Assembly: GCA_037045155.1 (NCBI GenBank) | Contig: JBAOIG010000002.1 | Location: 278,433 to 342,432 of the forward strand | Reading direction: 5' to 3' | Length of the DNA: 64,000 nt | Source: Thermomicrobiales bacterium | GTDB taxonomy: Bacteria > Chloroflexota > Chloroflexia > Thermomicrobiales > CFX8 | Part shown: in pieces, positions 1-52,988 of the stretch | How the letters are laid out: each line of letters starts with the position of its first letter | Numbering within the stretch: the stretch's first letter is position 1 | Position numbers and translations under genes: made by a program | Notes under the pieces: generated by a model | What the model saw: the letters and a program-made list of their open reading frames with translations, nothing else | Told to the model about the DNA's origin: nothing | Database searches by the model: none

Positions 1-3000
1 CCGTCGCGACGACGGCATCGAACGCCTTGAGCTGCTCGCCGATTCGCCCGGCAAGGTCTGCGTAGAGATCCTCCATCTGGCGGGTCGGCGCGGCGTCGGC
101 CGTCTCCAGCGCGCCGCCGAGGGTGGCAAGCTTGGTGTTGAGCCTGACCGGGTAGTTGAGCGTGTCCTGGACGGACTGCACCTTGACCTGCAGCAGCTCG
201 CCCTCGATCGCGTCGAGCTTGTCGACGAGCGCCTTGCCGGCCGCGGCGATCGCCTCGCCCGACGCAGCGTCCTTCGCGCGCCCGACCCAGCCGTTCGCCT
301 GCTCGCGCAGGGCGCGGATGCGGTTCACCGCGCGGTTCAGCTCGCCGTGCGTGTCGCGGATCTTCAGGCCCAGCGCCGTCTGGGCGGCGAAGTCGTCGGC
401 CGTCGTCGTCAGGCGTGGATCGGGAGTGACGACAATCGGCACGGTCAACGTCTCGCCGCCGGCTGTCAGGCGCGCCTGATAGCTCCCCGGCGCGGCGAGC
501 GGGCCGCCGACGCCGGGCTGGTCGCCGCCCTTGGTCGCGATCTTCTCGGCATTGGCGTAGCGCAGGTCCCAGACGAAGCGATTCAGCCCGACGCTGGTTG
601 GCAGCTTCGGCTGGCCGTCGTCCTCGGCGTCGTCGGCGTCGGCCGCTGGCTTGCTGGCGTACTCGCGGATGACGTTGCCGCTGGCGTCGAGGATCTCCAG
701 CCGGATCGGATCGGCCGGCGTCTCGGCCAGCGCGTAGTGGAGCAAGACGCCATACGGCGGGTTGTTGCCGGCGTCGGTGTAGGTGAACTTGGTGCCGCCC
801 TCGGCGGTCTTCTCAACGTTGTAAGACGGGATCATCCCGCCGACGAACCAGTAGTTCCGGCCGGGAACCGGCGCGTGGCCGAAGCCCCGCCAGCTGGCCC
901 AGGCGCAGCGTCTCGCGCGGGGCGAACAGGCGCGTCTGGCCGGCGGCGTCGCCCATCTGGCGCAGGACCTCGAGGTCGTCGAGGATCCAGAAGCTGCGGC
1001 CGTGGGTGCAGACGACGAGCTCGTCGCCGCGTGATGATCAGGTCGTGGATTGGCACGACCGGCAGGTTGCCGCCCAGCCGCTGCCACGAGTTGCCACCGT
1101 CGTCCACGAGATGTAGATGCCGGTCTCGGTGCCGGCATAGAGCATGCCGCGCCGCTTCGGATCCTCGCGGACGACGCGGGTGAAGTCGTCGTGCGGGATG
1201 CCGTTGGTGATCGTCGTCCAGGTCTTGCCGCCGTCGGTCGTGCGGAAGAGGTAGGGGGCGAAGTCGTCGAGCTTGTAGCGTGTGGCGGCCAGCGTAGGCC
1301 GGTCTGGTCGTCGTGCGGGCTGGCGTCGATCAGCGAGCATGAGCGCCCAGTCGGGCAGCCCCGTCGGGCTGACGTCGGCTGCCATGTCTGCGCCGCCGTC
1401 GCGAGTGACGTGGACCAGTCCGTCGTCGGAGCCGGTCCAGATGACGCCCGGGCGTAACCGGCGACTCGGCGATGGTGAAGATCGTGCCGTAGTACCTCGG
1501 CGCCGGTGTTGTCCTTGGTGATCGGGCCGCCGGACGAGCCCAGCGTCTCCGGGTCGTCGCGGGTCAGGTCGGGGCTGAGTCGATGTCCCAGCTGACTGGC
1601 CCTCGTTGGTCGTGCGGAAGACGTAGTTGCGCGCCGACGTAGCAGGCGTGTCGGGTCGTGCGGCGAGAGGACGATCGGCGAGGTCCACTGGAAGCGGTAC
1701 TTCATGCCTCGGCCGCAGCGATCGCCGATGGAAGTTCTCCGGCCAGACGGCTGATGTTGCGCGCTCTGCTCGCGGCCGTGGTCGTAGCGGGTCAGGAAGC
1801 CCTGCATCGAGCCGGCGTAGACGATATCGGGGTCGTCGGGGCGAATGGCGATGTAGCCGCTCTCGCCGCCGCCGATCTCGCGCCATTCGTTGATGATGAT
1901 GGCGTCGTAGTTCGACCGGCTGGGCAGCGACATCGTCGTGTTGTCCTGCTGCGCGCCGTAGACGCGGTAGGGCGTCCGGGTGTCGGTGGCGACGTGGTAG
2001 AACTCGCCGGTCGGCTGGTTGTAGAGGGTAGACCACGAGCCGCCGCCGTTGAAGGTGACCATCGTCGCCGCCGTCGTTGCCGAGGATCATCCGGTCGGTG
2101 TTGGTCGGGTCGATCCACATGTCGTGGTTGTCGCCGTGCGGGGCGGGGACCTGCTGGAAGGTCTTGCCGCCATCGACCGAGCGCCAGAGCTCGACGTTCA
2201 GCACCCAGACAGTGTCGGCGTCGCACGGGTCGGCGACGATGTGCGAGTAGTACCAGGCGCGCTGGCGCAGGTTGCGGTCGTCGCTGGTCCGCTCCCAGGT
2301 CTCGCCGCTGTCGTCGGAGCGGAAGACGCCGCCCTCCTCGTGCCTCGAACATGGCGTAGACGCGGCCGGGCTGGCGGCGAGGCGACGACGGCCGATCTTG
2401 CCGAGAATCCCCTCTGGCACGCCGGGCCGCTCGGTCAGATCCTGTCCAGGTGTCGCCGCCATCGAGCGAGCGGAAGATGCCGCGAGCCGGGGCCGCCGCT
2501 GAGCTCATGTAATGCGGGCCGCGCTCGGCCTCGCAAGAGCCGGCGTAGATGATCCGCGGGTTGTTCGGGTCGAGCGACAGGTCGTTCGCGCCGGCGTCGG
2601 TCGGAGACGAAGAGGATGCTGCTCCCAGGTCTTCGCCGCCGTCCTTCGAGCGGTAGAGCCCGCGCTCGGGGTTCGGGCCGTGGGCGTGACCGAAGGCAGC
2701 GACGTAGACGAGGTCGGGGTTGGTCGGGTGGACGCGCACCTTGCCGATGTTGCGCGTCTTCGGCCAGCCCGAGGTGCTGCCAGGTCTTGCCGCCGTCGGT
2801 GGACTTGTAGACGCCGTCGCCGTGGGAGACGTTGCCGCGGATGGTCGACTCGCCCATGCCGACGTAGATGACGTTGGGGTCGGACTCGGCAACGGCGATC
2901 GCGCCCACCGAGGCGCGCTTGAAGAAGCCGTCGGAGATGTTCCTCCAGTGTTGACCGCCGTCGTCGGATCTTCCAGACGCCGCCGCCGGTCGAGCCGAAC

Positions 3001-3107
3001 CAGGCAGTCGCGGGCATCGACGCGTGGCCGGCCACCGTGACGACGCGCCCACCGCGCGTCGGCCCGATGCTGCGCCACTCCAGCCCGTCGAGAAGCTTCT
3101 GATCCAT
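1..3107 (-). pseudogene. BNR/Asp-box repeat (sortilin/VPS10-like) beta-propeller protein. The C-terminus runs off the window start and the N-terminal two-thirds is broken by many frameshifts.
   Basis: The N-terminus [27 protein letters not shown] starts at 3107. Asp-box motifs ([60 protein letters not shown]) are scattered over all three minus frames (track ORFs 2505..3128, 2435..3052, 1792..3132, 1038..2462, 832..1107). From about 900 down to 1 a single open frame (..NYWFVGGMIPSYNVEKTAEGG...LKAFDAVVAT) continues past the window edge. Confidence 0.8.
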
Positions 3108-3460
3108 GCCGTTCCCTCTCACGATCACTCATGCCATCTCAGCAGCCCCGAGTATAGGCCGGATGGATGTACGGGGGAACGAGAGGGTCGGAGATCTGGC
3201 GCAACCTTATGCTGTCGCGGCAGTAGATATCCATCAACCACTGCGCGGGCAAGATCGTAGATGGCTGCCGGCTACGACGTGATCGGCGGGTGCACAGCAG
3301 CCCCTGACGATACTGTGCTTGCGGCTGAGCATCACCAGCCGTCGGAGCGCGTTCACAGACACTAGCTGTCACAGCTACGGCATGTTTCGCAGTATGAAGC
3401 CCACAAAAACGCGGCACCGGCAATCTCGCCAGGGCCGCGTGATGTCTCCGACAGGCAGGG

Positions 3461-6400
3461 CTACCGCATGCGGAACGTGACGGTGTGCTCGACCGGGTCG
3501 CCAGCAACGGTGAACGTGATCGCCCAGACGCCGGCCACACGGCCGCGAATCTGGAAATCGTAGACGTACCCGCGGAGCCGCGAATCGTAGCGGAAGTTAC
3601 TATCCCGGTTTGCGCTGATGGCGGTGTGGGGACGTGTCGCGGCGCCACCATCGAGCGTCGTCAGCTGCACCGCGTTGAGGATGATCTCGGCGTCCGATAC
3701 GTTCGCCCCCTTCGCGTCGGTCAACCGCAGCCGGACCGGCAGCGAGCTACCGGGCCGGTGCGCCTCATCCTGATCGTAGAGCGTGGCGATGTTATAGGTC
3801 ACACCATACCCGACGCTCACGGTGGCCGCGTTGCCGACGTTGTCGATGGCATCGACGGTGAACTGCTTCGTTCCGGCCGACGCCGTGTCGATCGCCGCGC
3901 CGCTGGTGACCGGCCCAGTGCAACCTGCGACGCCGGAGCCGCCGTCGGCACAGGTGTAGCTGGCGATGACGGACTGGTTGAGCACGTAGATCGTGTCAGT
4001 GGGGGAGGTCAGCGTGATCTCTGGAGCATTCTTGTCAACCCTGTTCCCGCTGACCGGACCCGCGATGGAGCAGTTGCCGGCAACATCGCAGACCTGACGA
4101 CTCCCCGTGGCCGCGCCGGTCGTCTCAGTTCCGAACGTGACATTGGTCGACAGCACAAACGCGACGTCACTAGCGTTGTCCAGACCGGAGGCGGCATCGC
4201 TGGCGACGCAACGGATACTGACGTCCGCGGCGTGCCACTGGCCGTCGGCGGCGTCGCAGAAGACAGCCGGCTGGGTCTTGTCGATCTGAACGATGAGCGT
4301 CTGCTCGGCGCTGCGCCGGCCGGCCTGATCGACTGCCTGGTACGTGATCAGGTATTCACCCTCGGCCGCTGGCAGAACCGTGCCGGGGTCGAGGACCATG
4401 CCGTCCGGCAGCGTCCACCCCTCGGCCGGCACGACCTTGTCCTGGCCGAAGCTGGCAGACGCGCCCGGACCAGCGCTGAAGCGCGTATCGCCATCCAGCA
4501 GCAGGCTGTGGTATTCGATCAGGGCCACACCCGATCCGCCGATTGTGTCACGACCGTCGAATCGGACGTCGACCGCCGAGCGATACCAGCCGTTCGCGCC
4601 GGGCAGCCCGGCGACGACCGTAGCGGTCGGGGCGATCGGGTCGTGGAGGTCCACCTTCGCGTCGTACTGGAATGTCGAGCTTGCGCCGACCAGATTACTG
4701 GCGGCGAACGCAAACTGGTGGATACCGTCGGCAGCGATCTCGATCGTCCAGCGGTACACACCATCGCTGCCGAGCGCCGCGGCGCAGGTCACGCCCGCGA
4801 CGGCCGCGCAATCTGCGCCGTTGACAGTGAGGCTTGCGCCGCGGAGGCCGGCCGCGTCGAACGTGGCGATGGTCAGCACCGCCCTGTCCGACGCGCAGCC
4901 GCCGCCCGCGTCACAGACGCCGGTCAGCCAGCCAGCAGCCCCGACTCTGGAGGCGATGGCGCCAGACGTGGTGGACGCGGTAAAGCTTGGGCCAGGGCCG
5001 TCAGCAGCCGTGAGGGCCTTGACGACCTGACGGGCGTAGGCGCGCTGGCCGGCCGCGTTGGGGTGCATCGTGCCCTTCTGCTCTCTAGCTCAAGCAGGAA
5101 GATCGGCCCCCACGAAGTCGTCGTCTTCCAGACAGGTCCCTGTTGGCGCGCCGATTCGTACGGTCTCACGACCCAGTTGTCGTTGGCGCAGTAGCCGTGT
5201 CGGGCGAACTGCTCGGAGATGCCGGTCACGAAATGCCAGCCCTTATCGGCGTGGCGTTCGGCAGCGTCGCGGATCGCATTGTTGAGCGGGATGATGACCG
5301 AGTTGCGCGCCCACTCCGCCTCGTCGCGGTCGATGTGGATCTTGGCGAAATCGAACGGAGTGGCCGGGACAATCTCGCCTAGCATCGAGCTACAGGTCTC
5401 GCCGTTGGCATCGCCCGTCGGGTCGGGGTATTCGGTGATGTAGACATTCTTGATGTTCAGCGCCGGCCGACCATCAGGGGTTGGGTTTGTCAGGGCGTTC
5501 GCCAGCCGGTCATAGCGGTTCGGCAGTTCCGCCATATCGTCCCGCAGACGGTCGAGGACGGCGGGCTGCTCGTGACAACGGCCGCCAGTGCCGAAGACGC
5601 GCGGCATGTTGTGCCAGACGCAGTCGGCGATGATGTCGGCGAAGTGGATGTCATTGCCGCCGCCGCTGACGATCAGCGCGTCGATCTCACGCCCATTCGC
5701 CACCTCGGAGAGCACCTGGAGCTGTGACTTCAGGTAGGCGCCGGGCGAGTAGTCGTCGGGATTCGGCGGGACGGTTCCGCGGAACGGCCCGAGCATTCCG
5801 CTGCCCTCAAATTTGTCGCCGTTGTAGATTGGTGCGTCGATCGTGCCGCCGGAGCAGGCCAGCGAGATGAACGTGACCGACGACTTCGAGTCGCCGCGCT
5901 CGATCGCCATCGCCGCCTGCGCCGCGCCGGCCGTCGCCGAGCGGTGACAGCGCTCGTCCACCCACTTCGCGCCCGCGCTGACGAAGCCGAGATCATCGAA
6001 CTTCTGCGGTATATCGGGGTTGCCCTCGCCCGACCCGTAGGAGTCGCCGATCGAGACGATGAACACGTCCTTGACCGTCACGATCTGGGAGTGGCTCATC
6101 GTCGCGCCGGCCAGCGTCGTGATCGTCACCGCCACGTCGTAGTCCCCCTCGGCGGAGAACGTGTGCTGCCAGAGACAGCTGTTGGTCGGCGCGCCGGCAT
6201 CTGCGCCATCGACCGCCCAGGCGTACGTGTTGGCCGACAAGCCGGAGGCGGCCTCCTCCTCGGTCTGGCAGCCGTCGAAGTTCAGGACAAAGCCGCTCGG
6301 GTTGACATATGCATGGTCGTAGGTCGCTGTCGCCGGATCCCAGTGGTAATCGATGATGCCGTTGCCGTCGGCATCAAGGCCGAAGCGGCTCGGCGTGCTC

Positions 6401-6558
6401 CAATCGAACCCAGCTGCGGGCGGGATAAATGGTGGATTGGGAACATCGTCGATCGGACTTGGGTCGAGCCGATCTTTCGGCAGCGCACTGGTCGCGGCAG
6501 GGAAGAGCCCCGAGATCAACGTTACCGTCGCGAACAACACGAGTAATCGGCGAGGCAT
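3461..6558 (-). pseudogene. Secreted SGNH/GDSL-family hydrolase with a long Ig-like C-terminal region, split by one frameshift.
   Basis: ORFs 4924..6558 and 3461..5068 are one gene. The upstream ORF has the signal peptide MPRRLLVLFATVTLISGLFPAATSA plus GDSYGSGEGN and SGGGND blocks. The SGNH block V motif (G)TMHPNAAGQRAYA opens the downstream ORF. The frame changes within about 5070-5095. The C-terminal ~520 aa look like repeated beta-sandwich units (DKTQPAV.., DKNAPEITLTSP..). Confidence 0.75.
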
Positions 6559-7011
6559 GCAAAGTGTCCCTTCATCAACCAGCGAAACGGGCGAGAGAAA
6601 CCCATGTTCTCTGAAAAGTCACCAGCCGAACCGGTGATGGTGTTGGTGATGTGATGTGGTGGTGAAGTGATGAGGATGCGTGAAGGCTTCGGGAGCCTCG
6701 CCAAGCATACCGCACAAATCAGCCCGACCGGCGCTTCCACGGCCCGGAACGCGGCTCAATCCCGCTGCCGGACGCCTGACAATACGCACTCGACGCGAGC
6801 AAGGATAGCGAGGACGGGGTCGGAGTCGGAGAACATCCCGGCCCGCGAGGCGATGAATATCGGCCGGGTAACGCAAGATCTATCGAGAGATCAGCAGATT
6901 CATTCCCGTGCTCTTAACGACCCCGCCACAGCAATCCCGACAGCCACAGCGGAAGAGCGTTACTCGAATTGCGAGTCAGTGATGCTGGCCGGGCGACCGA
7001 TCGATGCCCCA

Positions 7012-7040
7012 TTGACCCGAGCGGGCGTCGGGCGTATTCT
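7012..7040 (+). promoter_or_regulatory. Candidate sigma70-type promoter TTGACC-17-TATTCT.
   Basis: The hexamers were read directly. It lies about 130 nt upstream of ATG 7172, in a 600-bp divergent intergenic region of lower GC. Confidence 0.3.
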
Positions 7041-7171
7041 GGTTCCATCGCAGTACTGCAAATTCGTTATTCCGTTGTGTAGCCTCCGCAGCCGACACAA
7101 ATCATTCGTGTTCCCTCAAGCACTGAACGATCAAAACACCAGTGGATCGGAGAACGCACAGGAGGCGCCAC

Positions 7172-8857
7172 ATGTCACGCCATATGGTCCGCATCGCCGT
7201 AGTCTTGCTCCTCGCCTGCTCTGCGCTCGCAAGCAGCGCCGGCGCCACGCGAGCCTGGGACGAGCCAACGCTGGTGGCAGCCACCGGGAACGCGGTCTCG
7301 ATCACCCGGCTGAGGACGGACGGACGGTTCGTCATCTGGATCGTCTATTCCTCACAATCTCCGGGCTCCACGACAGCCACGCTCGACGGTATCGATCGGT
7401 TAACCGGCGAACCTGTCAGCGTTGACATCACGGGCGACCCCGAGAACCCTTCGACTCTCTGGGACGCTCTGGCCGTCGACCTCGATATCGACGGCGGGCT
7501 GCTGGCGCTGTCCACGACGTGGAACCACTACCACGGCGAGGGTCCGCACGGCGTCTTCGCCAAGAACCTGTATACCGGCGAACAATGGCAACTCTCGTCA
7601 GCCAAGGTCCCAGGACCGGTTGGCGTCTCCGGCAGCACCGTCTACTGGGTCGAACGGATTCCTGGCGGCGGCGATCGCGATGTCATCCGCGCCCAGGGTG
7701 CTTATCCTGGCGCCGACACGAGCAACCTCTACACCGCCGCAACCCGGGAGACGTTCGTGAAGGATCTCAGTGTCGCCGAAGGGCACGTGATCTGGCAGGA
7801 GCACGACGAGGCGACGGATTCCTGGCGGCTGGCGACGCTGGCTGCCGGCGACGACCTGACAATTGCCGAAGGCACGCAGCGGATCCCATTCGACGCACGC
7901 GGCGATGTGCTGGTGTATCGGGAAGCCGGGGGCCTGTCTGTCCGATCGCTGACGACGGGGGTGACACGCCACATCGCGATCGACGCCACGCAGTTCGCCA
8001 CCGACGGCCGCTACATCGTCTGGAACGCCAACCCGTTGATTCGGATGTACGACCTTCAGACGGACGCCTCGTTTGTCGCGGTCACCTCGAATATCGTCGA
8101 TGGCGCGGGCGGGCAATTCGGGCTCGTCGCGGCGTCTGGCGGAGCACTCTCCTGGACACGGACATTCCCATACGTGTACCCACCGCCATACGATCAGGTG
8201 ACCAACGAAATTCACGCGGCGCCGATCTCCACCCGCCTGCCGAGCGCGCCACGCCCCAACCCGGACGCAATCGGCGCCACGTGGAAGTATTTCCCGGAAA
8301 CCAGCCACTACCTGTCGTGGAGCTTCCTTGAGTATTGGCAGGCGAATGGTGGCCTGCCGGTGTTCGGCTTCCCGCTGACCGAGGAATTCTCCGAGCTCAA
8401 TGCCGACACCGGCGTGGACTACACCGTCCAGCTCACGGAGCGGCAGCGCTTCGAGTACCACCCCGAGAACGCGCCGCCGTACCACGTGCTGCTCGGCCGC
8501 CTCGGCGCGGAGCTGCTGGTGAGCCAGGGTCGCGACTGGACCACGTTCCCGACCGCTGACCCCAGCGCCCCACACTACATGCCCGCAACCGGGCACGCCA
8601 TCGACGAACGATTCTGGGACTGCTGGTCCGGCCGCGGCCTCGACGTCGGGGATCCGGGCGTCTCGTTCCGCGAATCGCTGGCCCTCTTCGGCTACCCGCT
8701 CTCGGAGCCGATGATGGAGACGAACGCGGACAACGACACCGTTCTGACGCAGTACTTCGAACGCGCCGTCTTCGAGTGGCATCCGGACAACCCGCCGGAG
8801 TGGCGGGTGCTGCTGCGCCGGCTGGGCGCGGAGGCGCTATCGGACAGGGGCTGGTAG
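7172..8857 (+). CDS. Secreted protein with a putative beta-propeller N-terminal region and two LGFP-like C-terminal modules.
   Basis: AGGAGG lies about 6 nt upstream of ATG 7172. Signal peptide MSRHMVRIAVVLLLACSALASSAGA. A strand motif recurs six times (DGRFVIW, GSTVYWVE, EGHVIWQE, GDVLVYRE, DGRYIVWN, GGALSWTR). The C-terminal modules read ..GGLPVFGFPLTEEF..TVQLTERQRFEYHPE.. and ..LALFGYPLSEPM..LTQYFERAVFEWHPD... Confidence 0.7.
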   Translation: MSRHMVRIAVVLLLACSALASSAGATRAWDEPTLVAATGNAVSITRLRTDGRFVIWIVYSSQSPGSTTATLDGIDRLTGEPVSVDITGDPENPSTLWDALAVDLDIDGGLLALSTTWNHYHGEGPHGVFAKNLYTGEQWQLSSAKVPGPVGVSGSTVYWVERIPGGGDRDVIRAQGAYPGADTSNLYTAATRETFVKDLSVAEGHVIWQEHDEATDSWRLATLAAGDDLTIAEGTQRIPFDARGDVLVYREAGGLSVRSLTTGVTRHIAIDATQFATDGRYIVWNANPLIRMYDLQTDASFVAVTSNIVDGAGGQFGLVAASGGALSWTRTFPYVYPPPYDQVTNEIHAAPISTRLPSAPRPNPDAIGATWKYFPETSHYLSWSFLEYWQANGGLPVFGFPLTEEFSELNADTGVDYTVQLTERQRFEYHPENAPPYHVLLGRLGAELLVSQGRDWTTFPTADPSAPHYMPATGHAIDERFWDCWSGRGLDVGDPGVSFRESLALFGYPLSEPMMETNADNDTVLTQYFERAVFEWHPDNPPEWRVLLRRLGAEALSDRGW

Positions 8858-9162
8858 GGGCCAGCGGCACAGGCGAGACGAGATTGCCTCAGCTGACGTA
8901 GCCGGCCATCCCCGCCGTCTCCTCGCTGGCAAACAGCTCGGCCTGCTCGATGACGAGCTGGGTGGCAACCGCATCTCGTCATCGAGTGGCTCATTGTCCT
9001 CCCCGGCCCTCGCACGGTTGCCAGAGTGTTCGGCGGGCTGCGGGGCGCGCTCGTATACAATCCGTTCCCACGATGTGGCTCGCGAATGCGTCCAGCAGGA
9101 GTGGAAGACTAGTCGATGGCCCGGCACAACGCTTCGCCGCGCCTGGCATACGAGGAGCCGGC

Positions 9163-10149
9163 ATGAGCCATCACCCGATCGCGCCTCTGCGCGGCTATCA
9201 CCACCTGACGATGGTCACCCGCGACGCGCGGGAGAATGCCCGCTTCTATCGCGATCTGCTGCGGCTGCGGCTGGTCAAGCAGACGGTCGATCTCACCATG
9301 CCGGATGTCCGCCACGTCTGCTACGGCGACGAGATCGGCGCGCCGGGGTCGCTGCTGACCTTCTTCGAATGGCCGGACGCCCCCCATGGCCAGCGCGGCT
9401 GGGGCGGGACGGAGCACATCGCCCTGCGGGTTGCCAGCGGGGCGGCGCTGGCATGGTGGCGCGGCCATCTGGAGCGCGAGGGGGTCGACCTGGAAGGGCC
9501 GTTCCACGACCACACCAGGCCGGCCATCCGGTTCCGCGATCCGGACGGGCTGATCGTCGAGCTGGTTGCCCCAGCCGGGGATGACGTGCCGGATGGCGCG
9601 CCGGTCTTCTTCGTGCCCGCGATGGCGATCGGCCGGATCGACCACGCCGCGCTGCTGGCGACCGATCGCGAGACGGCATCGGTCTACTACCAGCACATGC
9701 TGGGCTTCGACCTCGCCGGCGAATATCCAAACCCGATCAACCCTGGCCGGGCCGATCTCGTCTTCGAGATTGATGGGCCGGCCCCGGCCGAGCGGCTGAT
9801 CGTGACACTGGTGGACCACGACGCCGTCGGGCGCGCCGTCGCCGGCCCCGGCCAGATCCACCATATTGCCTTCTGCGTGCCGGACGAGGCAGTCGAGCTG
9901 GTCTGGCAGGAGCGGATCATCAGCGCGGGCGTCAACGTGTCGGACATCCAGGACCGGCAGTATTTCCACAGCATCGACTTCCGTGACCCGGACGGGCACC
10001 TGCTGGAGATCGCCACCGCTCACCCCGGATTCGCCATCGATGAGCCGCTGGAGTCGCTCGGCCAGGCGCTGAAGCTTCCGCCGTGGCTCGAGCATCGCCG
10101 CGACGAGCTGGAACGCAGGCTCCGCCCGATCGACGGGGACAACGAGTGA
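9163..10149 (+). CDS. Two-domain VOC (glyoxalase/ring-cleaving dioxygenase, MhqO-like) family protein.
   Basis: GAGGAG RBS before ATG 9163. The N-terminus GYHHLTMVTRDARENARFYRDLLRLRLVKQTVD...LLTFFEWPD and the second domain IDHAALLATDRETASVYYQHMLGFDL..HHIAFCV..YFHSIDFRDPDGHLLEIAT are typical VOC modules. Confidence 0.8.
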   Translation: MSHHPIAPLRGYHHLTMVTRDARENARFYRDLLRLRLVKQTVDLTMPDVRHVCYGDEIGAPGSLLTFFEWPDAPHGQRGWGGTEHIALRVASGAALAWWRGHLEREGVDLEGPFHDHTRPAIRFRDPDGLIVELVAPAGDDVPDGAPVFFVPAMAIGRIDHAALLATDRETASVYYQHMLGFDLAGEYPNPINPGRADLVFEIDGPAPAERLIVTLVDHDAVGRAVAGPGQIHHIAFCVPDEAVELVWQERIISAGVNVSDIQDRQYFHSIDFRDPDGHLLEIATAHPGFAIDEPLESLGQALKLPPWLEHRRDELERRLRPIDGDNE

Positions 10150-10322
10150 GCCGCCGTCAGATCCGCGCGGCGGTGATGATCGCCGGCGTCGTCCTCGCGA
10201 TCATCCTGCTGGTAGTGATCGCCGCCAGCGCTTCCGGATCGACGCGCATCATTGTCCTCGCCCTGCTGGCCCCGTTGCTGACACTCACGTCGGTGGCAGT
10301 CTGGCGCAGCCTCAACAGCTGA
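10146..10322 (+). CDS. Small (58 aa) two-helix membrane protein.
   Basis: The GTG start overlaps the TGA stop of the VOC gene (GTGA at 10146-10149). Hydrophobic sequence VMIAGVVLAIILLVVIAASA..IIVLALLAPLLTLTSVAVW. Confidence 0.45.
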   Translation: MSRRQIRAAVMIAGVVLAIILLVVIAASASGSTRIIVLALLAPLLTLTSVAVWRSLNS

Positions 10323-10380
10323 TCTCCGTCTCGTGACAGCCTGACACAGCCGTGATATGCTCTCTGTACGTACACGGTGA

Positions 10381-10698
10381 ATGTTCAGGCAGGGGCGCCC
10401 AATGGCACAGGCACGACGAGCGACGCGGACGATGTATGGCTACACAGTAGACGAGGTGTCGCGGTTCCTGCAATACGATCCGGCAGCAATACGCTACTGG
10501 CTGCGGACCGGCCACCTGGCCGGCGCATTCGACCCGTCGATCGACGACTGGCGGGTAACCGCCAACGACCTGGTGATCTTCCTGCGGCAGTCCAGCGAGC
10601 CGATGCCGACCGGCGTCGTCGTCTGGCACGACGCACCGGCTGTGCCATCCCCCGCGCCCGTCAGCGAAGCAGCGCTCGTGATGTCGGGAGCCGACTGA
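10381..10698 (+). CDS. Excisionase/MerR-like HTH (HTH_17-type) DNA-binding protein.
   Basis: YTVDEVSRFLQYDPAAIRYWLRTGHLAG matches the helix-turn-helix of excisionase-family binding domains. The real start may be the internal ATG at 10432 (MYGYTVDE). A possible promoter GTGACA-17-TATGCT lies at 10333-10361. Confidence 0.55.
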   Translation: MFRQGRPMAQARRATRTMYGYTVDEVSRFLQYDPAAIRYWLRTGHLAGAFDPSIDDWRVTANDLVIFLRQSSEPMPTGVVVWHDAPAVPSPAPVSEAALVMSGAD

Positions 10699-10701
10699 GC
10701 A

Positions 10702-11488
10702 CTACGGGCCGGGAGTCGCCCCCGATTCCCAGGCGAGCGCGTCGAGGATACCGCCAACGACTTCTCTCGCCGAGAACGACCGGTCGTAGTACGTCGCCGA
10801 GCCATCATCGCCCAGAATGAAGCGCTCAACACCCCACCAGACCGGTCCGGATGCCGTTTGCACGAGCGGCTCAAACGCCACGTCCGCTCGGTTGCTCCGA
10901 GTCGCGACAAGCCCGAGCAGGATTCGTTCGCCCACAGCCAGCAACTCGGACGGAGCGTGCACGACGGAGGAGTCGTCGACCGTCCCACCCTCGACAACGA
11001 CGACGAGCCGCGTCGTGTCGACGGGGAACGCAGTTGCCCCACGGTCATCTCGCGGAATGAGGGGTCCCGTCATCTTGCGCAGGTAATCCGGCACGTCGAG
11101 CTCAAGTACAAACGGGGTGATGATGGTATATCGCTCAGGAACGTCAACGAGCAGGTCGGCCGGGCGGCTACCATCTGGTGTTGTCCAGCGCGCCGGCTGC
11201 TCCTCGACGACACGACCGATGACGAAGAGGTCGTACCCCTGAACCAGCAGATCCGGACGGAACGTCGGATCATATCATAGTGAGAACGAATCCATCAGGG
11301 TACGCGTCATCCGTCGCCGCCGGTTCAACGTGAGCGGTTGGAGACGATTCAACAGGCGTGGCGACCTCCGGGGATGCATCCGCCGCGCTCCCGGTCGGTA
11401 CGACATCCGGCGCGCCACATGCGATCACCAGAAGACACACGACGACGATGAAGAGTTGGCGCGCGGGCTGTCGTGTTGCCATCGGCAC
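10702..11488 (-). pseudogene. Lipoprotein of unknown function, split by one frameshift.
   Basis: ORF 11270..11488 encodes a lipobox signal peptide (MPMATRQPARQLFIVVVCLLVIACG) and stops after ..YPDGFVLTMI. The frame of ORF 10702..11094 is open right up to that stop (YDPTFRPDLLVQGYDLFVIGRVVEEQPARW..). The junction is at about 11265-11275 (actatgatatgatcc). Confidence 0.55.
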
Positions 11489-11691
11489 AGCTCCTGTTCG
11501 ATCAGGTGCGGGAACATCTTACGTCTATACAAGGGGGTGGTGTCAATACTTTCTCGTCCGATCACTCATGGTATCGAATGCAACACCATCGAGTTGCGCG
11601 ATGCGAAACCATCGCACTCACTTCGTTCCCGAGTCGTTCTGAGACGATCGAGTGCAGTGATACTGTCACCCTTGGGGGCGCTACTGCCTCT

Positions 11692-11783
11692 GTCATTCTG
11701 AGCGGAGCGAAGAATCCGTCCCTCTCCGGCGGCAGCGAACCAGCGCGGGGAAACGGATCCTTCGGCTGCGGCCTCAGGATGAC
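11692..11783. repeat. Single copy of the palindromic (REP/MITE-like) hairpin element.
   Basis: The arms GTCATTCTGAGCGGAGCGAAGAATCCGTC ... GACGGATCCTTCGGCTGCGGCCTCAGGATGAC form an imperfect inverted repeat around a ~30-nt loop. Same family as 38.6, 47.5 and 57.0 kb. Confidence 0.8.
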
Positions 11784-28458: not shown

Positions 28459-28682
28459 CCGGCGCATCGAGATTGCTCACAACGGACCGCGGGACGGGGG
28501 AGCAGGACCAGATGGGGGGGCGGAGGCCGCGCCGACGTGCAGGACGCGCGGCCACCGCAAGAGGAGTGAGTGAGACCGGCCAACCGGGAGTGGGGCCCGG
28601 AAGGCCAGGGAAGCAGAGGCACCGTCGGGTCGAAAGGCCCGCGGCCGGCGGCAGCGTCGGTGGGGTACTCCGCTGACCGGTG

Positions 28683-31795: not shown

Positions 31796-33215
31796 GTGTC
31801 GCTGCGCGTCCGGCTGGCGCTGATCTACACCGTTGCCTTCCTGGTTGCGCTGGCGATCATCGGGAGCGCGATCTATCTCATCCTGCGTCAGGCGCTGGCG
31901 GCGGAGGTAGATAACGAGCTGATCGAGCGTGCCGCTCAGATCGATCGCGCGATGGTGATCCGTGGCGGCAACGAGCTGGACGCCCAGCATCTGCTCGACG
32001 AGATCTTCGTCCTGTCACCCCCTTCGCCCGACCAGGAGCTGCGCGCCGCGAGTATCCACATTCATATCCTCGGCGAGGATAGCCACTCGCTGGCCAGCTC
32101 ATCGCTGACGGCCGAGACGGTGCCAGTCGACCGCGAGGCGGTCGCCGCCGCGGTCGCGGGTGACACAGTCCTTCGCACGTCGCGGGTCGGCCGGGTGCAG
32201 ATTCGCTCGCTCTACAGCCCGCTGCGGATCAACGGAAAGATCGTGGCGGTCGCTCAGCTCTCCGAATCGCTCAGCCCGATGACGCGGACGATCGCCGAGT
32301 TCCGGACACTACTGCTGGCCGGCGGGCTGCTTGCCCTGCTGGGCGGGCTGGCCGGCACCTTGTCGCTATCTCGCCAGGCACTTCAGCCGGTGGCCGATCT
32401 GACCGACCGCGTCGCCCGGATCGCAGAGACAGGCGAGTTCGCGGAGCGCGTTCCGGAGGCGAAGTCTCCTGACGAGATCGGCCGGCTGGCGCTGACCTTC
32501 AACACGCTGCTCGACCGGATCAGCCTGATGCTCGATCGCCAGCGGACGCTTGTGGCCGACACGTCTCACGAGCTGCGCAATCCGCTGATGGTCGTCCGCG
32601 GCAATCTGGAGCTGCTGGCGGTCGGCCTCCCGCCGGAGGAGCAACGCGAGGCTGCACGCGACGCCATTGATGAGGTCGATCGAATGACGCGCCTCGTCGG
32701 CGACCTGCTGTTTCTGGCCGACGCCGACGCCGAGCGGGCGATCGAGCATCATGACGTGCCGCTGGAAGCGCTGGTCGCCAGCGTCATCGCCGACGCGCGC
32801 CGGCTGGCCAACAACCCCGACAGTCCCCGCGAGCTGGTGTTGACCGCGAACGACGCGCTGACTGTCCGCGGCGACGCTGAGCGACTGCGACAGCTGATCT
32901 GGAATCTGGTCGAGAACGCGCTGCGCTACACGCCGGCCGGCGGGACGGTGACCGTCAGCCTGCGCCGTCGCGGCCCGGTCGCCGAGCTGACCGTCGCCGA
33001 CACCGGCATCGGCATCCCGCCGGAGCATCTGCCGCACCTCTTCGAGCGCTTCTACCGCGTAGACACCGGCCGCTCGCGCGCCGTCGGCGGCACCGGGCTG
33101 GGCCTGTCGATCGTGCGCCAGATCACCGAAGCGCACGGCGGCCAGGTCCGCGTCCGCTCGACGCCGGGCGTCGGCTTCGACGTTCACGGTGGCGCTGCCG
33201 GTGACGGAGGGATGA
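31796..33215 (+). pseudogene. Sensor histidine kinase (TM-HAMP-HisKA-HATPase) whose last ~13 codons are frame-shifted by a 1-nt insertion.
   Basis: H-box SHELRNPL, N-box LIWNLVENALRYTP, and G-boxes DTGIGI and GTGLGLSIV. As sequenced it reads ..TPGVGFDVHGG.. and runs on. Deleting one T at 33176/33177 restores the canonical end TPGVGSTFTVALPVTEG-TGA (stop 33213-33215). Confidence 0.8.
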
Positions 33216-33250
33216 GGGTTGAGGCAAACGGGATGAGTGACGAAAGAGGG

Positions 33251-34483
33251 ATGACAATGGCTGATTGGCCGGCGACGGCAGCAGAAATGGGGTTGATGGA
33301 GGGGTATCCGGCGCCGCCGGAGAAGCAGGTGACGCGCGAGAACCTGATGTCGGGGCCGTATAACCGCTGGGGCTTTCAGCACATGCGCGAGCTGATGGCG
33401 ACGGCGGCGGTGTATCGCGGCGATGGGCCGGTGCGCGAGCTGCCGCAACGGCCGCGCGACCTGAGCGGGCTCACTTTCGCGGCGGTCGACGGGACCGAGC
33501 AGACGGTCGATGACATGCTGGCGCTCAGCTACGCCGACGCGCTGGTCGTGCTGCACGACGGGACGCTGGTCTACGAGCGATACCTGAACGGGATGGGGCC
33601 GGCCAGCCAGCATCAGATGATGTCGGTGACCAAGTCGCTGGTCGGGACGCTGGCGCTGCAACTGGCCCACGAGGGGCTGATCGACGAGTCTCGACCGGTG
33701 ATTGACTATATCCCCGAGCTGGCCGGCAGTGCCTGGGAGGATGCCAGCGTCCGCCATGCGCTCGACATGACGACCGGCATCCGCTTCAGCGAGGTCTACG
33801 ACTTCGAGGACGGCGATGTTGCCCGCTATGGGATCGCCGCCGGGTTCAGGAATCCGCCAGAGGGGTATCAGGGGCCGCGCACGGTGCCGGAGCTGTTCCC
33901 ACAGTTTCCGAAGGCCGGCGAGCACGGCGAGGCGTTTCACTACGTCACGCCAAACACCGATGTCGTCGGCTGGATCATCGCCCGCGCCACCGGGAAGCCG
34001 TTTTCGCAGGTCTTCGGCGAGCGGGTCTGGTCGCGGCTGGGGACGGAACGAGACGCCTACATCATCCGCGACAGCATCGGGATGGAGATGGCGGGGGCCG
34101 GATTCAACGCAACCGCCCGCGACCTGGCGCGTTTCGGCCAGATGCTGCTGGACGGCGGGATCTGCGACGGGCAGCAGATCATCGCGCCGGAGGTGGTCGC
34201 GACCATCCGGGGCGGCGGCGACCGCGAGGTGTTTGCCCGTGGCGTCGAGGAATGGGGACCAGTCTGGGAAGGCTGGTCGTATCGCGCCTTCTGGTGGAAC
34301 ACGCACAACGCGCACGGCGCATTCACCGGCATCGGGATCAACGGCCAGTGGCTGTACGTCGACCCCGCCGCCCGTGTCGTCATCGTCCAGCAGTCGAGCT
34401 ACCCAACCGCCGACCTGCCCGAGGTCGACGGCATCACCGTGCCCGGCTTCCACGCCATCGCACAGAATGTGACGGGGGGATGA
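33251..34483 (+). CDS. Beta-lactamase-family serine hydrolase (6-aminohexanoate-dimer hydrolase/D-aminopeptidase-like).
   Basis: SxxK motif MMSVTKSLVG, then YVTPNTDVVGWII, with a GAFTGIGINGQWLYVDP C-terminal motif. GAAAGAGGG RBS before ATG 33251. In the ORF track it is fused to the kinase only through the frameshift. Confidence 0.75.
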   Translation: MTMADWPATAAEMGLMEGYPAPPEKQVTRENLMSGPYNRWGFQHMRELMATAAVYRGDGPVRELPQRPRDLSGLTFAAVDGTEQTVDDMLALSYADALVVLHDGTLVYERYLNGMGPASQHQMMSVTKSLVGTLALQLAHEGLIDESRPVIDYIPELAGSAWEDASVRHALDMTTGIRFSEVYDFEDGDVARYGIAAGFRNPPEGYQGPRTVPELFPQFPKAGEHGEAFHYVTPNTDVVGWIIARATGKPFSQVFGERVWSRLGTERDAYIIRDSIGMEMAGAGFNATARDLARFGQMLLDGGICDGQQIIAPEVVATIRGGGDREVFARGVEEWGPVWEGWSYRAFWWNTHNAHGAFTGIGINGQWLYVDPAARVVIVQQSSYPTADLPEVDGITVPGFHAIAQNVTGG

Positions 34484-34566
34484 GGGGGAGCGGAGGGGGC
34501 GGGACGTGCATCTGTTCCCACGACAGTAGCCAGTTACCGCAGTTGAGACCGTCGTGTAAACAGGCG

Positions 34567-34595
34567 TTGACAGTGGTTACGATCAGTACGATAAT
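34567..34595 (+). promoter_or_regulatory. Near-consensus sigma70 promoter TTGACA-17-GATAAT.
   Basis: TTGACA at 34567-34572, 17-nt spacer, GATAAT at 34590-34595. It lies at the left edge of the low-GC islet, 50 nt before ATG 34646. Confidence 0.6.
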
Positions 34596-34645
34596 TTTGG
34601 TTGGATCTCCCATCGCTGTATCTATCTAACGGACACGCCGTGACC

Positions 34646-35473
34646 ATGGTTGAACGGTTCAATCAGCCAATGAACTCCCTCAGATCGACTGGTGGCCAAA
34701 CAGTTGTTTGGGCGGTGGTTAGTGGTGTAATCCTTGCGATCGTGGTTGGTGTCTGGCATCGGCTGATCTCCTCAGCATTGGTATTACCTCTCATCCTCGT
34801 CACTATCGTTTTTGTCACTGGAGTCATCGTTGGCTACTGGTTCAGGAAGCAACACAAGACACCTTCGGTGTCGTCTACCAACTACCTCACAAAGATGCTA
34901 GAAGCTGATGGTCGTTTGTTCATTGCGCTCGGGGGCCTAATATCGAATCATCATGGTTCGCACGCGTTCGATAATGCCCTCAAAGCCTGCGTATCCGCCT
35001 GCTGTGGCCTTCTTGCTGACGGTGCTCGTGGCATCATTTACCGGCCCGTCGATGGCTGTTTAGAACCTACGGCGGATCACCTTATGACCCCAAATGAACT
35101 AAAGCGAAAGTTTGCAGCAACACGAGATTATGTCACGAGCGACGTACCGTGGGGTATTGCTAGCGCTGTCTATCAGGGGAATCAACACAGAGTTGTCCCC
35201 TTCCGCGAGTATCAAGGGAAGTGGATACCGCTGGATCCGGAATACCATGTCTTCCCAGAAGACGCTACCGGGCTACCGTACCGCTCATTCATTGCTATTC
35301 CGCTGCGGGTCACGCCAGCATCTGATTGTCTCGGCGTTCTCTGCCTCGATAGTATGCGGCCAGACGCTTTCGACGACGCTGATCTGCAACAGTACCTTGT
35401 TAACCTCGGGCTTCGCATGGCAATCCCTATGCTCCTATATAATCACTCGGCGACGGCGTCGGACCCCGGTTAG
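34646..35473 (+). CDS. Membrane-anchored (2 TM) protein with a GAF-like C-terminal domain.
   Basis: TM helices TVVWAVVSGVILAIVVGVW and ALVLPLILVTIVFVTGVIVGYWF. The C-terminal pattern YRSFIAIPLRV..CLGVLCLDSMRPDAFDDADLQQYLVNLGLRMAIPML matches the characteristic S-[FL]-x-A-[IV]-P-L...GVL-x-[LV]-[DE]-S...F GAF signature. About 50% GC versus about 67% in the flanks. Confidence 0.55.
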   Translation: MVERFNQPMNSLRSTGGQTVVWAVVSGVILAIVVGVWHRLISSALVLPLILVTIVFVTGVIVGYWFRKQHKTPSVSSTNYLTKMLEADGRLFIALGGLISNHHGSHAFDNALKACVSACCGLLADGARGIIYRPVDGCLEPTADHLMTPNELKRKFAATRDYVTSDVPWGIASAVYQGNQHRVVPFREYQGKWIPLDPEYHVFPEDATGLPYRSFIAIPLRVTPASDCLGVLCLDSMRPDAFDDADLQQYLVNLGLRMAIPMLLYNHSATASDPG

Positions 35474-35523
35474 TCGATTGGAGGCTATGCTATATTGACA
35501 CGGTTTTAATAAGCTTCGTTATC

Positions 35524-35548
35524 GACACGGATCTATTCTATCCGTGTC
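35524..35548 (+). terminator. Perfect 9-bp hairpin between the two islet genes.
   Basis: GACACGGAT-ctattct-ATCCGTGTC. No U-tract, so it could be a terminator or an operator. Confidence 0.35.
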
Positions 35549-35574
35549 CTTGATGCCCAGAGGAAGGGGCTATC

Positions 35575-35808
35575 ATGTCCACGATCGAGGCCGGGGAAAC
35601 GCGCGAGCAGAAAGTCATTGATGCCTTCGACGACTATCTCACCGGCAAGATCACACTTGAAGAATACGAAGCCCTCGAAAGCTTGTATCGTACCGACTAT
35701 CTAGCTGTCGCCCGGGCCTTGGCGGGGCTTGGAGCCAGCCATCGGTCACGGATCTCAAATCCCGAATGCTCATCCAGCACCAACACATCGCGCGAGTGTG
35801 AGCGATAG
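35575..35808 (+). CDS. Small acidic helical protein with a SHOCT-like motif.
   Basis: GAGGAAGGGG RBS. YLTGKITLEEYEALESLY resembles the G-x-IT-x-EE-[YF] core of SHOCT. Low-complexity Ser/Cys-rich tail. Confidence 0.4.
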   Translation: MSTIEAGETREQKVIDAFDDYLTGKITLEEYEALESLYRTDYLAVARALAGLGASHRSRISNPECSSSTNTSRECER

Positions 35809-35818
35809 CCCGTAACGA

Positions 35819-36769
35819 CTAGCTGCCGAGGTGCTCGCGGAGGAAGGCGCAGGCGACGGTGAACTCGGCGTGGGCGCCGGGACCGGCAGAGCGAGCGCGC
35901 AGGAAGCCGTGGATCATCCCGCGCGCCTCGCGGTAGGTGACCGGCGTGCCGGCCAGCGCAAGGCGTGCGGCGAAAAAGCGGCTGTCGTCGCGGATGGGGT
36001 CGATGCCGGCCGCATGGACGAGCGCGGGCGGCAGGTTGGTGAAGTCGAGCGCGCGGACGGGCCGCGCGTAGGGATCGGCGCTATCGGGATCGTCCGGAAG
36101 GTAGAGCCGGTCGAACCGGTGCATGCTCGCGCTGGTCAGCCCCGGCCCATCGGCGAACTCGACGTACGACCCGGCGTCCTGCTCGAGCCCGAACCAGCCG
36201 TAGAGCAGCGCCTGAGCCGCGATCGGCGGGCCGCCACGGTCGCGCGAGGCGAGCGCCAACGCCGCGCCGAGCATGCCACCGGCGCTATCGCCCACAACAG
36301 CGATGCGGCCGGCGTCGATGCCGACCTCGTCCGGATTCGCCGCCAGCCAGGTCAAGACGCCGTAGCAGTCATCGAACGCCGCCGGGTAGGGGTGCTCGGG
36401 CGTCAGGCGGTAGTCGATGCTGACGACTGCCGCGCCGGTCTCCTGGGCGTAGCCCCAGGCGTTGCCGTCGGAGGTGTCGAGGTCGCCCAGCATGAAGCCG
36501 CCGCCGTGCATATAGAGGACGCACGGTCGCGCGCCGCTCCGGCCAGCGGGCTGGTAGACGCGCACGGGGACGCCGCCGTGGCCGGCGGGGATCGTCGCGT
36601 CGAAGACATGCATATCGGCGGGGCGAGGCTGGGGGAGGATGCTCGCGTAGACGCGCCACCAGCGGCGGGCGTCCTCGGGCGTCTCGCCTTGCGGGCCAAC
36701 GAGGGCATCTGCCTGCTCGCGCGCGTCGAGCAGCGGCTGCATGTCCGGATGGATGGTCTGCGTCGCCAC
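35819..36769 (-). CDS. Alpha/beta hydrolase, hormone-sensitive-lipase (family IV) type esterase.
   Basis: Oxyanion motif HGGGF (YMHGGGFMLGD), nucleophile GDSAGG, catalytic His in GMIHGF. GGGAGGGG RBS before GTG 36769. The ORF extends to 36829. Confidence 0.85.
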   Translation of the reverse strand: MATQTIHPDMQPLLDAREQADALVGPQGETPEDARRWWRVYASILPQPRPADMHVFDATIPAGHGGVPVRVYQPAGRSGARPCVLYMHGGGFMLGDLDTSDGNAWGYAQETGAAVVSIDYRLTPEHPYPAAFDDCYGVLTWLAANPDEVGIDAGRIAVVGDSAGGMLGAALALASRDRGGPPIAAQALLYGWFGLEQDAGSYVEFADGPGLTSASMHRFDRLYLPDDPDSADPYARPVRALDFTNLPPALVHAAGIDPIRDDSRFFAARLALAGTPVTYREARGMIHGFLRARSAGPGAHAEFTVACAFLREHLGS

Positions 36770-42107: not shown

Positions 42108-42225
42108 GCGCCACAGACCCTGGAGGTCGGAGCGAACCGCGCGCCCGCGCTAAATTAGGAGGCTCCGCGGGAACTGCCATCCTCATCAACCGGGACACAC
42201 CCAGATCCCGCCAACCTAGAAAGCG

Positions 42226-47441: not shown

Positions 47442-48013
47442 GTCATGTTGAGTGGATTGTCAACGTCAAAGTGGCACATATGTTGGCGCGGCAGCCACCC
47501 GATGCCTCTGTCATCCTGAGCGCGCACGCGAAGGATCTCTCCTGCGTTCGACTGCCTGCGGTGTGGGGGAGATTCTTCGGCTGCAGCCTCAGAATGACAG
47601 GCTGGCGGGGCCGGCAGCCACCCGGCGCCTCTGTCATCCTGAGCGCGCACGCGAAGGATCTCTCCCGCGTTCGACTGCCTGCGGTGTGGGGGAGATTCTT
47701 CGGCTGCAGCCTCAGAATGACAGGCTGGCGGGGCCGGCAGCCACCCGATGCCTCTGTCATCCTGAGCGCGCACGCGAAGGATCTTTCCCGCGTTCGACTG
47801 CCTGCGGTGTGGGGGAGATTCTTCGGCTGCGGCCTCAGAATGACACACTGGCGGGGCCGGCAGCCACCCGATGCCTCTGTCATCCTGAGCGCGCACGCGA
47901 AGGATCTCTCCCGCGTTCGACTGCCTGCGGTGTGGGGGAGATTCTTCGGCTGCGGCCTCAGAATGACAGCACAAGAGATCGGCTGCCGATCCGACAATCT
48001 GACATTGACAGCC
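47442..48013. repeat. Tandem array of 4 x 123-bp palindromic repeat units, flanked by related modules.
   Basis: Units start at 47510, 47633, 47756 and 47879 (period exactly 123 bp, above 95% identity). Each unit is GTCATCCTGAGCGCGCACGCGAAGGATCTC, a ~30-nt loop, GAGATTCTTCGGCTGCRGCCTCAGAATGAC, then a ~33-nt linker. The flanks are inverted copies of modules seen at 38.6-39.0 kb. Confidence 0.92.
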
Positions 48014-51642: not shown

Positions 51643-52988
51643 ATGACGACCGACGGGCTGGAGACGATCGTCCGCGCCGAGCAGGAGCGCTGGACTGCGC
51701 CGGGAGTCGCCTGGGGCGTGCTCCGCGACGGCGAGGAGCGGACCGGCGCGCTCGGCGTCGCCAAGCTGACGACCGGCGAGCCGATGCGGACCGATTCGCT
51801 TTGCCGGATCGCGTCGATCTCGAAGGTGTTCACCGCGACGCTAGCGACAATCCTGGCCGACGAGGGCACGCTCGACCTCGACGCGCCGGTGAGCCAGTAT
51901 CTGCCGGGGGTGCGGATCTCCGCAGCGCGGGCATCGAGGATCGCATCACGCCGCGCCACCTGCTTTCGCACGGAACCGGGATGCTCGGCGACTATTTCGT
52001 CGACCAGGGGCTAGGAGAGGACGCGCTGGCAAGGGCGATCGGCGAGTTTCACACGCTGCGGCAGTATGCCGAGCCGGACGAGCTCTGGTTCTACTGCAAC
52101 TCCGGCTTCCACCTGGCCGGCCGGGTGATCGAGGTCGTGGCCGGCAAGCCGTTCGATGCCATCATGCGCGAGCGCGTATTCGAGCCACTAGGGCTGGAGC
52201 GGGCCTGCTTCTTCTCCCACGAAGCGATCGTCCACCCTCACGCGATCGGACACAACCAGGTGGCCCCCGGCGCCGACGAGCACGTCCCGGCCGGGCAGTA
52301 CTATCCGCGCAACCGCCTGCCGGCCGGCGGGATCTACGCGAACATCCCCGACCTGCTGCGCTTCGCCCGCTTCCACCTCGGCGATGGAACATCCAATGGC
52401 CAGCGCGTGATGAACGCCGAGGCGCTCCGTGCGATGCGCGAGCCGCAGCGCCAGGCAGCGAACTGGGCCGACCAGTGGGGCATCGGCTGGGATCTGCGCG
52501 AGATCGACGGGGTCCAGGTGATCGGTCACGGCGGCAGCATCAACGGCTTCAAGTCGCTGCTGACCGTCGTGCCGGAGCGGCAGTCGGCGCTGGTCCTGCT
52601 GACGAACAGTGGTCGCGGCGATGTCGTCAACCGCGCGGTCGAGCGCTGGTGGATCGAGCGCGAGCTGGGGCTGCGGCTGCCGGAGCGGCCGCGAGTTGCA
52701 CTCGCCGACGATGCGCTGGCCCAGCTCGCCGGCCGCTATCATGGACCGGACACAACGGTCGATCTCGTGCCAGACGGCGGCAACTTGCGGCTGGAGATGA
52801 CCGCGCCCGGTCCGAACGGCGGCGACCCGGTCGCCTGGCCGGCCGAGACACTGGCCCCGATCGGTGGCCGGGACTTCCTCGTCACCACCGGCCCGGGCGC
52901 GGGCGAACGGGTCGACATCGTCCCGGATCGCGACGATCGGCCACGCTATCTACGGATGCATGGCAGGCTGTACGACCGGCAAGCATGA
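51643..52988 (+). pseudogene. Beta-lactamase-family serine hydrolase with one frameshift in a G-run.
   Basis: The SxxK motif (IASISKVFTA) is in the frame of ORF 51592..52014. The rest (ITPRHLLSHGTGM, YCNSGFHLAG, HGGSINGF) is in the frame of ORF 51801..52988. The switch is at the GGGGG run 51906-51910; a sixth G would give ..QYLPGGADLRSAGIEDRITPRHLL... Confidence 0.8.

Follow-up and report, generated by a model that had tools for sequence, protein, structure and literature searches.

An insertion-dense patch in a Sortilin/VPS10 BNR-repeat gene of a Thermomicrobiales genome as a probable consensus artefact

The frame changes in the BNR-repeat gene at the start of the window, the 64,000-nucleotide stretch of a Thermomicrobiales bacterium contig (JBAOIG010000002.1) analysed here, are very probably errors in the deposited consensus and not mutations of the organism, as judged from comparison with orthologous DNA. 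The damage is unique to one assembly, runs in one direction with events of 1-2 nt, and has bounds that are independent of the gene, which is intact in relatives; from these features we infer a technical cause of the patch. A segment of about 2.1 kb inside the gene would have been written from noisy data and left uncorrected or mis-corrected. Its source may have been a few error-prone long reads, a long-read gap or bridge fill, or a stretch out of the polishing reads' reach, and a collapsed consensus of co-occurring strains is a further possible source. The gene underneath is predicted to be an ordinary, intact BNR/VPS10 gene of 1042 aa under selection, and its frame-shifted form is not a biological feature.

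The main value of this finding is that of a data-quality flag. The record of the source MAG carries at least five spurious proteins, namely two fragments of the BNR gene (297 and 474 aa), one of the neighbouring gene (544 aa), a fusion of kinase and hydrolase (895 aa) and a partial hydrolase (123 aa). These have found their way into protein databases, where they are listed as 'hypothetical protein' or 'serine hydrolase', and patches of this kind will keep tripping scans for pseudogenes, gene fusions and recoding. Artefact can be separated from decay by polarising the indels against a close orthologue and checking which way they run, how large they are and where they stop. True insertions would imply an unknown insertion-only mutational process, and the evidence is strongly against this.

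The gene and its insertion patch

The gene starts with the ATG at 3107 (protein MDQKLL...) and encodes SxDxGxxW Asp-box motifs throughout. When its readable segments were stitched together and used in a protein search, they matched thousands of proteins of ~1040-1100 aa, with homologues spanning Chloroflexota, Acidobacteriota, Bacteroidota and Gemmatimonadota. Annotation pipelines label this family 'glycosyl hydrolase' or 'photosystem II stability/assembly factor-like'. The closest cluster to the stitched protein (representative P0001) shows 91% identity, and a search with P0001 across genome contigs returned 80 orthologous loci. The intact length in relatives is 1042 aa. The intact orthologue P0175 matches the Pfam profile PF15902 (Sortilin-Vps10) with E=1.5e-36 and 126.6 bits (cut-off 33), as well as the BNR repeat profile with 40.3 bits (cut-off 27), and the repaired translation of the window is collinear with P0175 over 1023 residues at 93% identity. 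The underlying gene is thus predicted to be a common, ordinary member of the Sortilin/VPS10 BNR-repeat family, with no biological difference from the intact proteins of ~1040 aa; only the deposited DNA is broken.

Three-frame translation, a GC3 plot and a Viterbi codon-usage segmentation trained on the long ORFs of the window agree that the coding frame hops among the three minus-strand frames from ~890 to 2970, as the initial annotation had described for the gene from MDQKLL (3107) onwards. A single frame is held from 886 to 1, at the window edge, consistent with its remark that the last ~900 nt stay in one frame. Its figure of at least a dozen frame changes was correct in that they are many, but the true count is about three times that (27-34 changes), and the density is one event per 60-80 bp instead of the proposed one indel per ~150 bp. 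The damage had also been described as confined to this gene; it is really confined to an internal segment of it.

Two intact sequences served as reference DNA, the short-read SPAdes contig L001 and the 1.5-Mb contig L098 of GCA_963853035.1, and the BNR gene of the window is 95.5% identical to these two over aligned columns. Fine pairwise alignment to L001 produced 38 indel events (35 extra and 3 missing bases in the window). The patch accounts for 34 of these insertions and two of the deletions, and one insertion and one deletion at 58-60, outside the patch, cancel out. A three-way MAFFT alignment of the window, L001 and L098 resolved 27 insertion events and no deletions in the gene (Table 1). 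Under both alignments, the net change in 891-2970 is +36 bases. The resolved events are 1 or 2 nt in size and occur at 17 per kb with Poisson-like spacing (mean 80, sd 80), and stray inserted bases make up ~1.7% of the patch. The composition of the inserted bases tracks the local one (C 14, G 13, A 10, T 1).

All events are confined to a 2080-nt internal segment of the 3166-nt gene (P=3e-7 under uniform spread), beginning 137 nt past the gene start and ending 960 nt ahead of the gene end. The extent of the damage thus ignores the gene boundaries, with both gene ends clean, as would fit bounds that were set technically. Between 2981 and 3165, the window has no mismatches and no indels relative to the orthologues, and this identity includes 58 nt upstream of the gene. 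The indel density in the patch is ~170 times that of the remaining window, whose 61 kb contain about six isolated single-base indels, and the pattern goes well beyond what chance would give.

Table 1. Coordinates of the BNR-repeat gene, its insertion patch, the deposited products and the isolated indels of the window
Feature	Position	Strand	Remarks
Sortilin/VPS10-domain BNR (Asp-box) repeat gene	1..3107	minus	last 72 nt beyond window start
Clean 5' end of gene	2971..3107	minus	matches L001 and L098 exactly
Insertion-dense patch	891..2970	minus	27-34 events, net +36 bases, gaps in both L001 and L098
Insertion sites (three-way alignment)	891, 1029, 1103, 1299, 1340, 1371, 1394, 1453, 1493, 1574, 1592, 1640, 1729, 1748, 1762, 2067, 2344, 2374, 2393, 2445, 2479, 2500, 2597, 2618, 2634, 2763, 2970
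Clean in-frame 3' part	1..890	minus	55 mismatches to L001, no net indel
297-aa 'hypothetical protein' MEI2616300.1 (V9F06_01515)	from 835 downwards	minus	matches window translation (P0171)
474-aa 'hypothetical protein' MEI2616301.1 (V9F06_01520)	1038..2462	minus	ORF through in-frame and out-of-frame segments
Missing G (CTGAG -> CTAG)	5087	minus	absent relative to L098, L100, L101 and L102; outside patch
Extra T	33176		absent from all six relatives covering the site
Frameshift in beta-lactamase-family gene	near 51928		frame switch precisely at the junction of Pfam profile positions 91 and 92
Intergenic extra bases	28514 and 42155		relative to relatives

Deposited products and independent assemblies

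An exact look-up among ~15 billion proteins placed the 474-aa ORF in a single-member cluster, known only from the 638,194-nt contig of the source MAG. The frameshifted N-terminal ORF and a 535-aa fragment of the neighbouring gene gave no record in the exact look-up. Twelve intact 1042-aa proteins from other assemblies (NCBI, ENA and JGI) belong to the 90% identity cluster of the BNR protein, and the gene is unbroken in at least 12 other assemblies of the species cluster, where intact in relatives refers to strains ~4.5% different in the BNR gene. The 90% identity cluster also holds an 816-aa member and the 297-aa piece of the source MAG. Broken products of the BNR gene are recorded from the source MAG alone, and the short-read contig L100 is without the insertion at 2970.

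Over 6179-11718, the window is matched with 100% identity by two Logan contigs, from SRR28161541 and SRR28161539; identical Logan contigs were found for this interval only, and none over the BNR gene. Two exact-pattern scans of JGI metagenomes with allele-specific 30-mers and 22-mers did not recover the divergent allele of the window in any independent assembly. A single 22-mer match in these metagenomes, in L099, was without further similarity.

Substitutions and the origin of the insertions

When the extra bases are dropped, the gene reads as 1023 codons with zero stops, in agreement with the lack of in-frame stops noted from the sequence earlier. The initial annotation had suggested an alignment to an intact orthologue, and this alignment revealed net insertions only, a repairable frame, no decay by stop codons and no more than weak decay by substitution, which bears out its view that the gene is unlike an old pseudogene. 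Divergence of the gene from its relatives is 4.5% overall and reaches 8% mismatches in 1-600, compared with <1% in the flanks. The clean 3' part differs from L001 by 36 synonymous and 19 nonsynonymous changes, a synonymous excess that points to purifying selection on a truly divergent allele. The corresponding counts for the patch are 38 and 46 (Fisher P=0.02 against the clean part), but many of the nonsynonymous mismatches directly adjoin an indel, and P rises to 0.08-0.11 once mismatches within 3-6 nt of indels are excluded. A mismatch was found within three columns of 14 of the 27 insertions (6.1 expected, P=0.0002). The insertions cluster with mismatches, so that the 'substitution' signal comes in part from compound, messy sites, and the mild nonsynonymous excess of the patch fits either noise or relaxed selection. 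The earlier description of the damage as indel-only therefore holds roughly, with the qualification of these substitution counts.

Natural single-base insertions arise mainly through slippage, which copies a neighbouring base. In the patch, a flanking base is copied by only six of the 19 single-base insertions, indicating that replication slippage was not their source, and homopolymer error was ruled out on the same grounds. Repeat-induced misassembly was also ruled out, as the window contains no second copy of the patch beyond a 21-nt Asp-box repeat.

Among versions of the consensus artefact, one that is attractive but that we consider unlikely is a mixed-strain consensus, in which two alleles were collapsed and both were written at variable sites, leaving an extra base each time. 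Strain divergence peaks at the BNR gene, against 99+% identity to relatives in the rest of the genome, the inserted bases are mostly unlike their neighbours, and sites such as 2970 (AA[G]A) and 2067 (GG[C]G) look as if the two synonymous variants of a codon had both been kept; the proximity of insertions to mismatches described above is also in line with this model. However, the most divergent part of the gene (1-600) is without any insertion, and many insertions are far from variable sites (for example, 2445, 2500, 2618 and 891). When 13 sites were inspected informally by eye, about half were compatible with a synonymous polymorphism at the third codon position, as many as chance would give.

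Multi-indel pseudogenes provide the natural standard for comparison. Curated bacterial examples contain 300 insertions to 396 deletions (ratio 0.76), and the insertion:deletion ratio is 0.79 in free-living Burkholderia and 0.94 in a mutation-accumulation experiment, with average sizes of ~19 nt for deletions and ~4-4.5 nt for insertions (Danneels et al. 2018, PMC6054270). The BNR gene resembles the multi-indel pseudogenes of reductive genomes in that study in having many independent frameshifting indels and functional orthologues for their polarisation. Unlike them, it shows a ratio of at least 12:1, events of 1-2 nt only, no stops, and damage bounded inside the gene. With natural pseudogene ratios, the probability of at least 35 insertions among 38 events is 2e-10 to 3e-8 (binomial).

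These comparisons make it very improbable that the gene is a genuine pseudogene of very recent origin, in which a burst of small insertions followed long purifying selection. The frameshifts are present in the deposited sequence, the allele differs genuinely from those of relatives (by 4.5%, and by up to 8% in 1-600) and may represent a distinct lineage with its own history, and the mild nonsynonymous excess within the patch could also be accommodated. Against this stand the insertion:deletion ratio of ~12:1 or higher, compared with ~0.8-0.9:1 in genuine pseudogenes and in mutation-accumulation lines (P<=3e-8), and the restriction to events of 1-2 nt, most of them not of the slippage type. Moreover, for ~30 indels the excess of substitutions is 20-25 at most, stop codons are lacking, and the broken products are found in no other assembly. 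Loss of constraint over the whole gene would be expected to leave events anywhere in it, whereas they were seen in the 2080-nt segment only, with the bounds given above.

Still less probable is a real, localised, insertion-biased hypermutation, with ~30 non-templated single-base insertions in a 2-kb segment and almost no deletions in one strain, which would require a mechanism not described in bacteria. The initial annotation had left the choice between an assembly or consensus artefact and very recent mutagenesis. The first is favoured by the insertion-only, 1-2 nt, non-homopolymer spectrum, the gene-independent bounds and the restriction to one MAG, which has further isolated indels, and mutagenesis retains a slight probability. 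An ordinary old pseudogene under relaxed selection would likewise carry many frameshifts, but is scarcely credible for a gene that has no stops after frame repair, encodes a repaired protein 93% identical to intact orthologues, is synonymous-dominated in its clean third, is intact in all relatives, and lacks the balanced or deletion-biased indel spectrum of broad sizes seen in nature. Restoration of the frame during expression by programmed recoding, whether through ribosomal frameshifting, transcriptional slippage or RNA editing, can practically be dismissed, since nothing speaks for it except the clean reading of the segments between shifts, the 27-34 sites share no common slippery motif, no shift site is present in L001, L098 or the 12 intact relatives, and recoded genes known in bacteria have one or two conserved sites.

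Other indels in the assembly and comparison with long-read errors

Two control regions of the window were compared with independent assemblies. Identity to the 1.5-Mb contig and several short-read contigs is 98.9-99.6% over 27011-47838, with 1-4 gaps per 4-15 kb. Over 2960-7271, three independent short-read assemblies (L100, L101 and L102) match the window at 99.7-99.8% identity, with exactly two indel differences, the G missing at 5087 and an extra G at 2970, which is the first insertion of the patch. The near-identity of the control regions to relatives indicates that the assembly is good in general.

Three of the isolated indels outside the patch also break genes. The defect at 5087 splits the neighbouring 1032-aa gene (6558->3461), of which six other assemblies (ENA and Logan) have an unbroken copy. 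At 33176, the extra T joins two adjacent genes, one for a 472-aa histidine kinase and the following one for a 408-aa serine hydrolase, into an 895-aa ORF (MEI2616325.1) with HAMP, HisKA, HATPase_c and Beta-lactamase domains. The defects at 5087 and 33176 were checked against up to eight independent assemblies, and the broken products at 5087, 33176 and ~51928 are each known from the source MAG alone. These isolated indels have the profile of a consensus of error-prone reads that was incompletely polished.

Impaired gene prediction as a result of small-indel frameshifts is described in passages of the proovframe preprint (10.1101/2021.08.23.457338), and passages of PMC9262707 and PMC8812927 describe residual indels that persist where polishing fails, the usual residual error of long reads being one of homopolymer length, often a deletion. 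Like the residual errors of long-read and hybrid assemblies, the events in the window are ORF-breaking single-base indels restricted to a single assembly, which short-read assemblies of the same or sister strains lack, and the source record has isolated indels elsewhere too. In contrast to the mostly homopolymer-associated, genome-scattered errors of the passages cited, the window shows insertions, mostly outside homopolymers, in one sharp-edged 2.08-kb patch. An insertion-only and mostly non-homopolymer patch is not the textbook case of long-read error, the homopolymer error known from nanopore assemblies, and this departure counts against the artefact reading.

A one-directional patch of small indels is also present at the same locus in L098, which supports a technical origin of the window patch. 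In the neighbouring 1032-aa gene, L098 (GCA_963853035.1) lacks ~100 stretches at 6553-9030, mostly single A or T; the window and the three short-read assemblies are in agreement at these places, and L098 is clean in the BNR gene. Both patches consist of local, one-directional small indels, lie in a long contig with 99% identity elsewhere, and affect a gene that is intact in short-read assemblies. Unlike the window patch, that of L098 lacks bases, some in runs of up to 41 nt, affects the other gene, and is divided into sub-clusters between clean stretches.

The codon model also called frame changes on the same strand at 10147, 55113 and 59541, which proved to be normal gene boundaries.

Frame changes and single-base differences in the window and in L098

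The features are listed in the table below. The fusion ORF contains an extra T at position 33176, which is absent from all six relatives covering this site. Through this base, a 472-aa histidine kinase passes at its end into the frame of the following 408-aa serine hydrolase gene, producing the 895-aa ORF, and the deposited histidine kinase-serine hydrolase is probably an artefactual gene fusion. Two further single extra bases are intergenic, with five to seven relatives covering each site: G7 versus G6 in the relatives at 28514, and TT versus T at 42155.

Features of the window and of the orthologous locus L098
Feature	Coordinates	Strand	Remarks
1032-aa gene	window 3461-6558	minus	weak Ig-like Big_13 match
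895-aa fusion ORF	window 31796-34483	plus	deposited as 'serine hydrolase' MEI2616325.1
Lower-G+C segment, ~1.3 kb	window 34494-35812		G+C 58.6% for 34001-36000
Tandem array	window 47485-47972		period ~123 nt
Beta-lactamase-family gene	window 51643-52988	plus	frame change at about 51928
Deletion-dense stretch	L098 6553-9030 (GCA_963853035.1, CAWKVX010000010.1)		corresponds to window 3108-6965

In the beta-lactamase-family gene, the frame switch falls between positions 91 and 92 of Pfam PF00144, and the first piece was deposited as a 123-aa protein (MEI2616341.1). The 1032-aa gene is split by one missing G at 5087 (CTGAG to CTAG), and its N-terminal 544 aa were deposited as MEI2616303.1. The gene is unbroken in three short-read assemblies and, at this spot, in L098, the orthologous locus on a 1.5-Mb contig of another long MAG. 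An SGNH-like motif, GTMHPNAAGQ, is located at the frame junction.

Elsewhere in L098, deletions break up the 1032-aa gene, and the pieces called from it measure 196, 310 and 174 aa. The deletion-dense stretch carries approximately 100 deletions versus just 24 mismatches; 66 of the deletions remove a single nucleotide, in most cases A or T, and the others include runs of up to 41 nt. Here the window and the three short-read assemblies are concordant with each other, against L098.

Strain divergence at the BNR-repeat gene

Over window 1-2870, the minus-strand Sortilin/VPS10 BNR-repeat gene is a strain-divergence hot spot with 4.5% mismatches to relatives, peaking at 8-9% in 1-600, where they are mostly synonymous, and in 1501-1800. 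In contrast, the flanking stretch 2981-3165 is identical to the relatives, and identity reaches 99-99.8% in both 2960-7271 and 27011-47838. The comparison suggests that this allele is imported or recombinant, with a breakpoint near 2870.

Possible variable insert and tandem array

The lower-G+C segment was found in the loci of five relatives (L087, L088, L091, L094 and L095), most of which encode 275-aa and 77-aa genes within it, and is missing from L086, L089, L090 and L093. The segment has the appearance of a small insert that varies among relatives. L086 and L091 align with the tandem array in multiple registers, ~123 nt apart.
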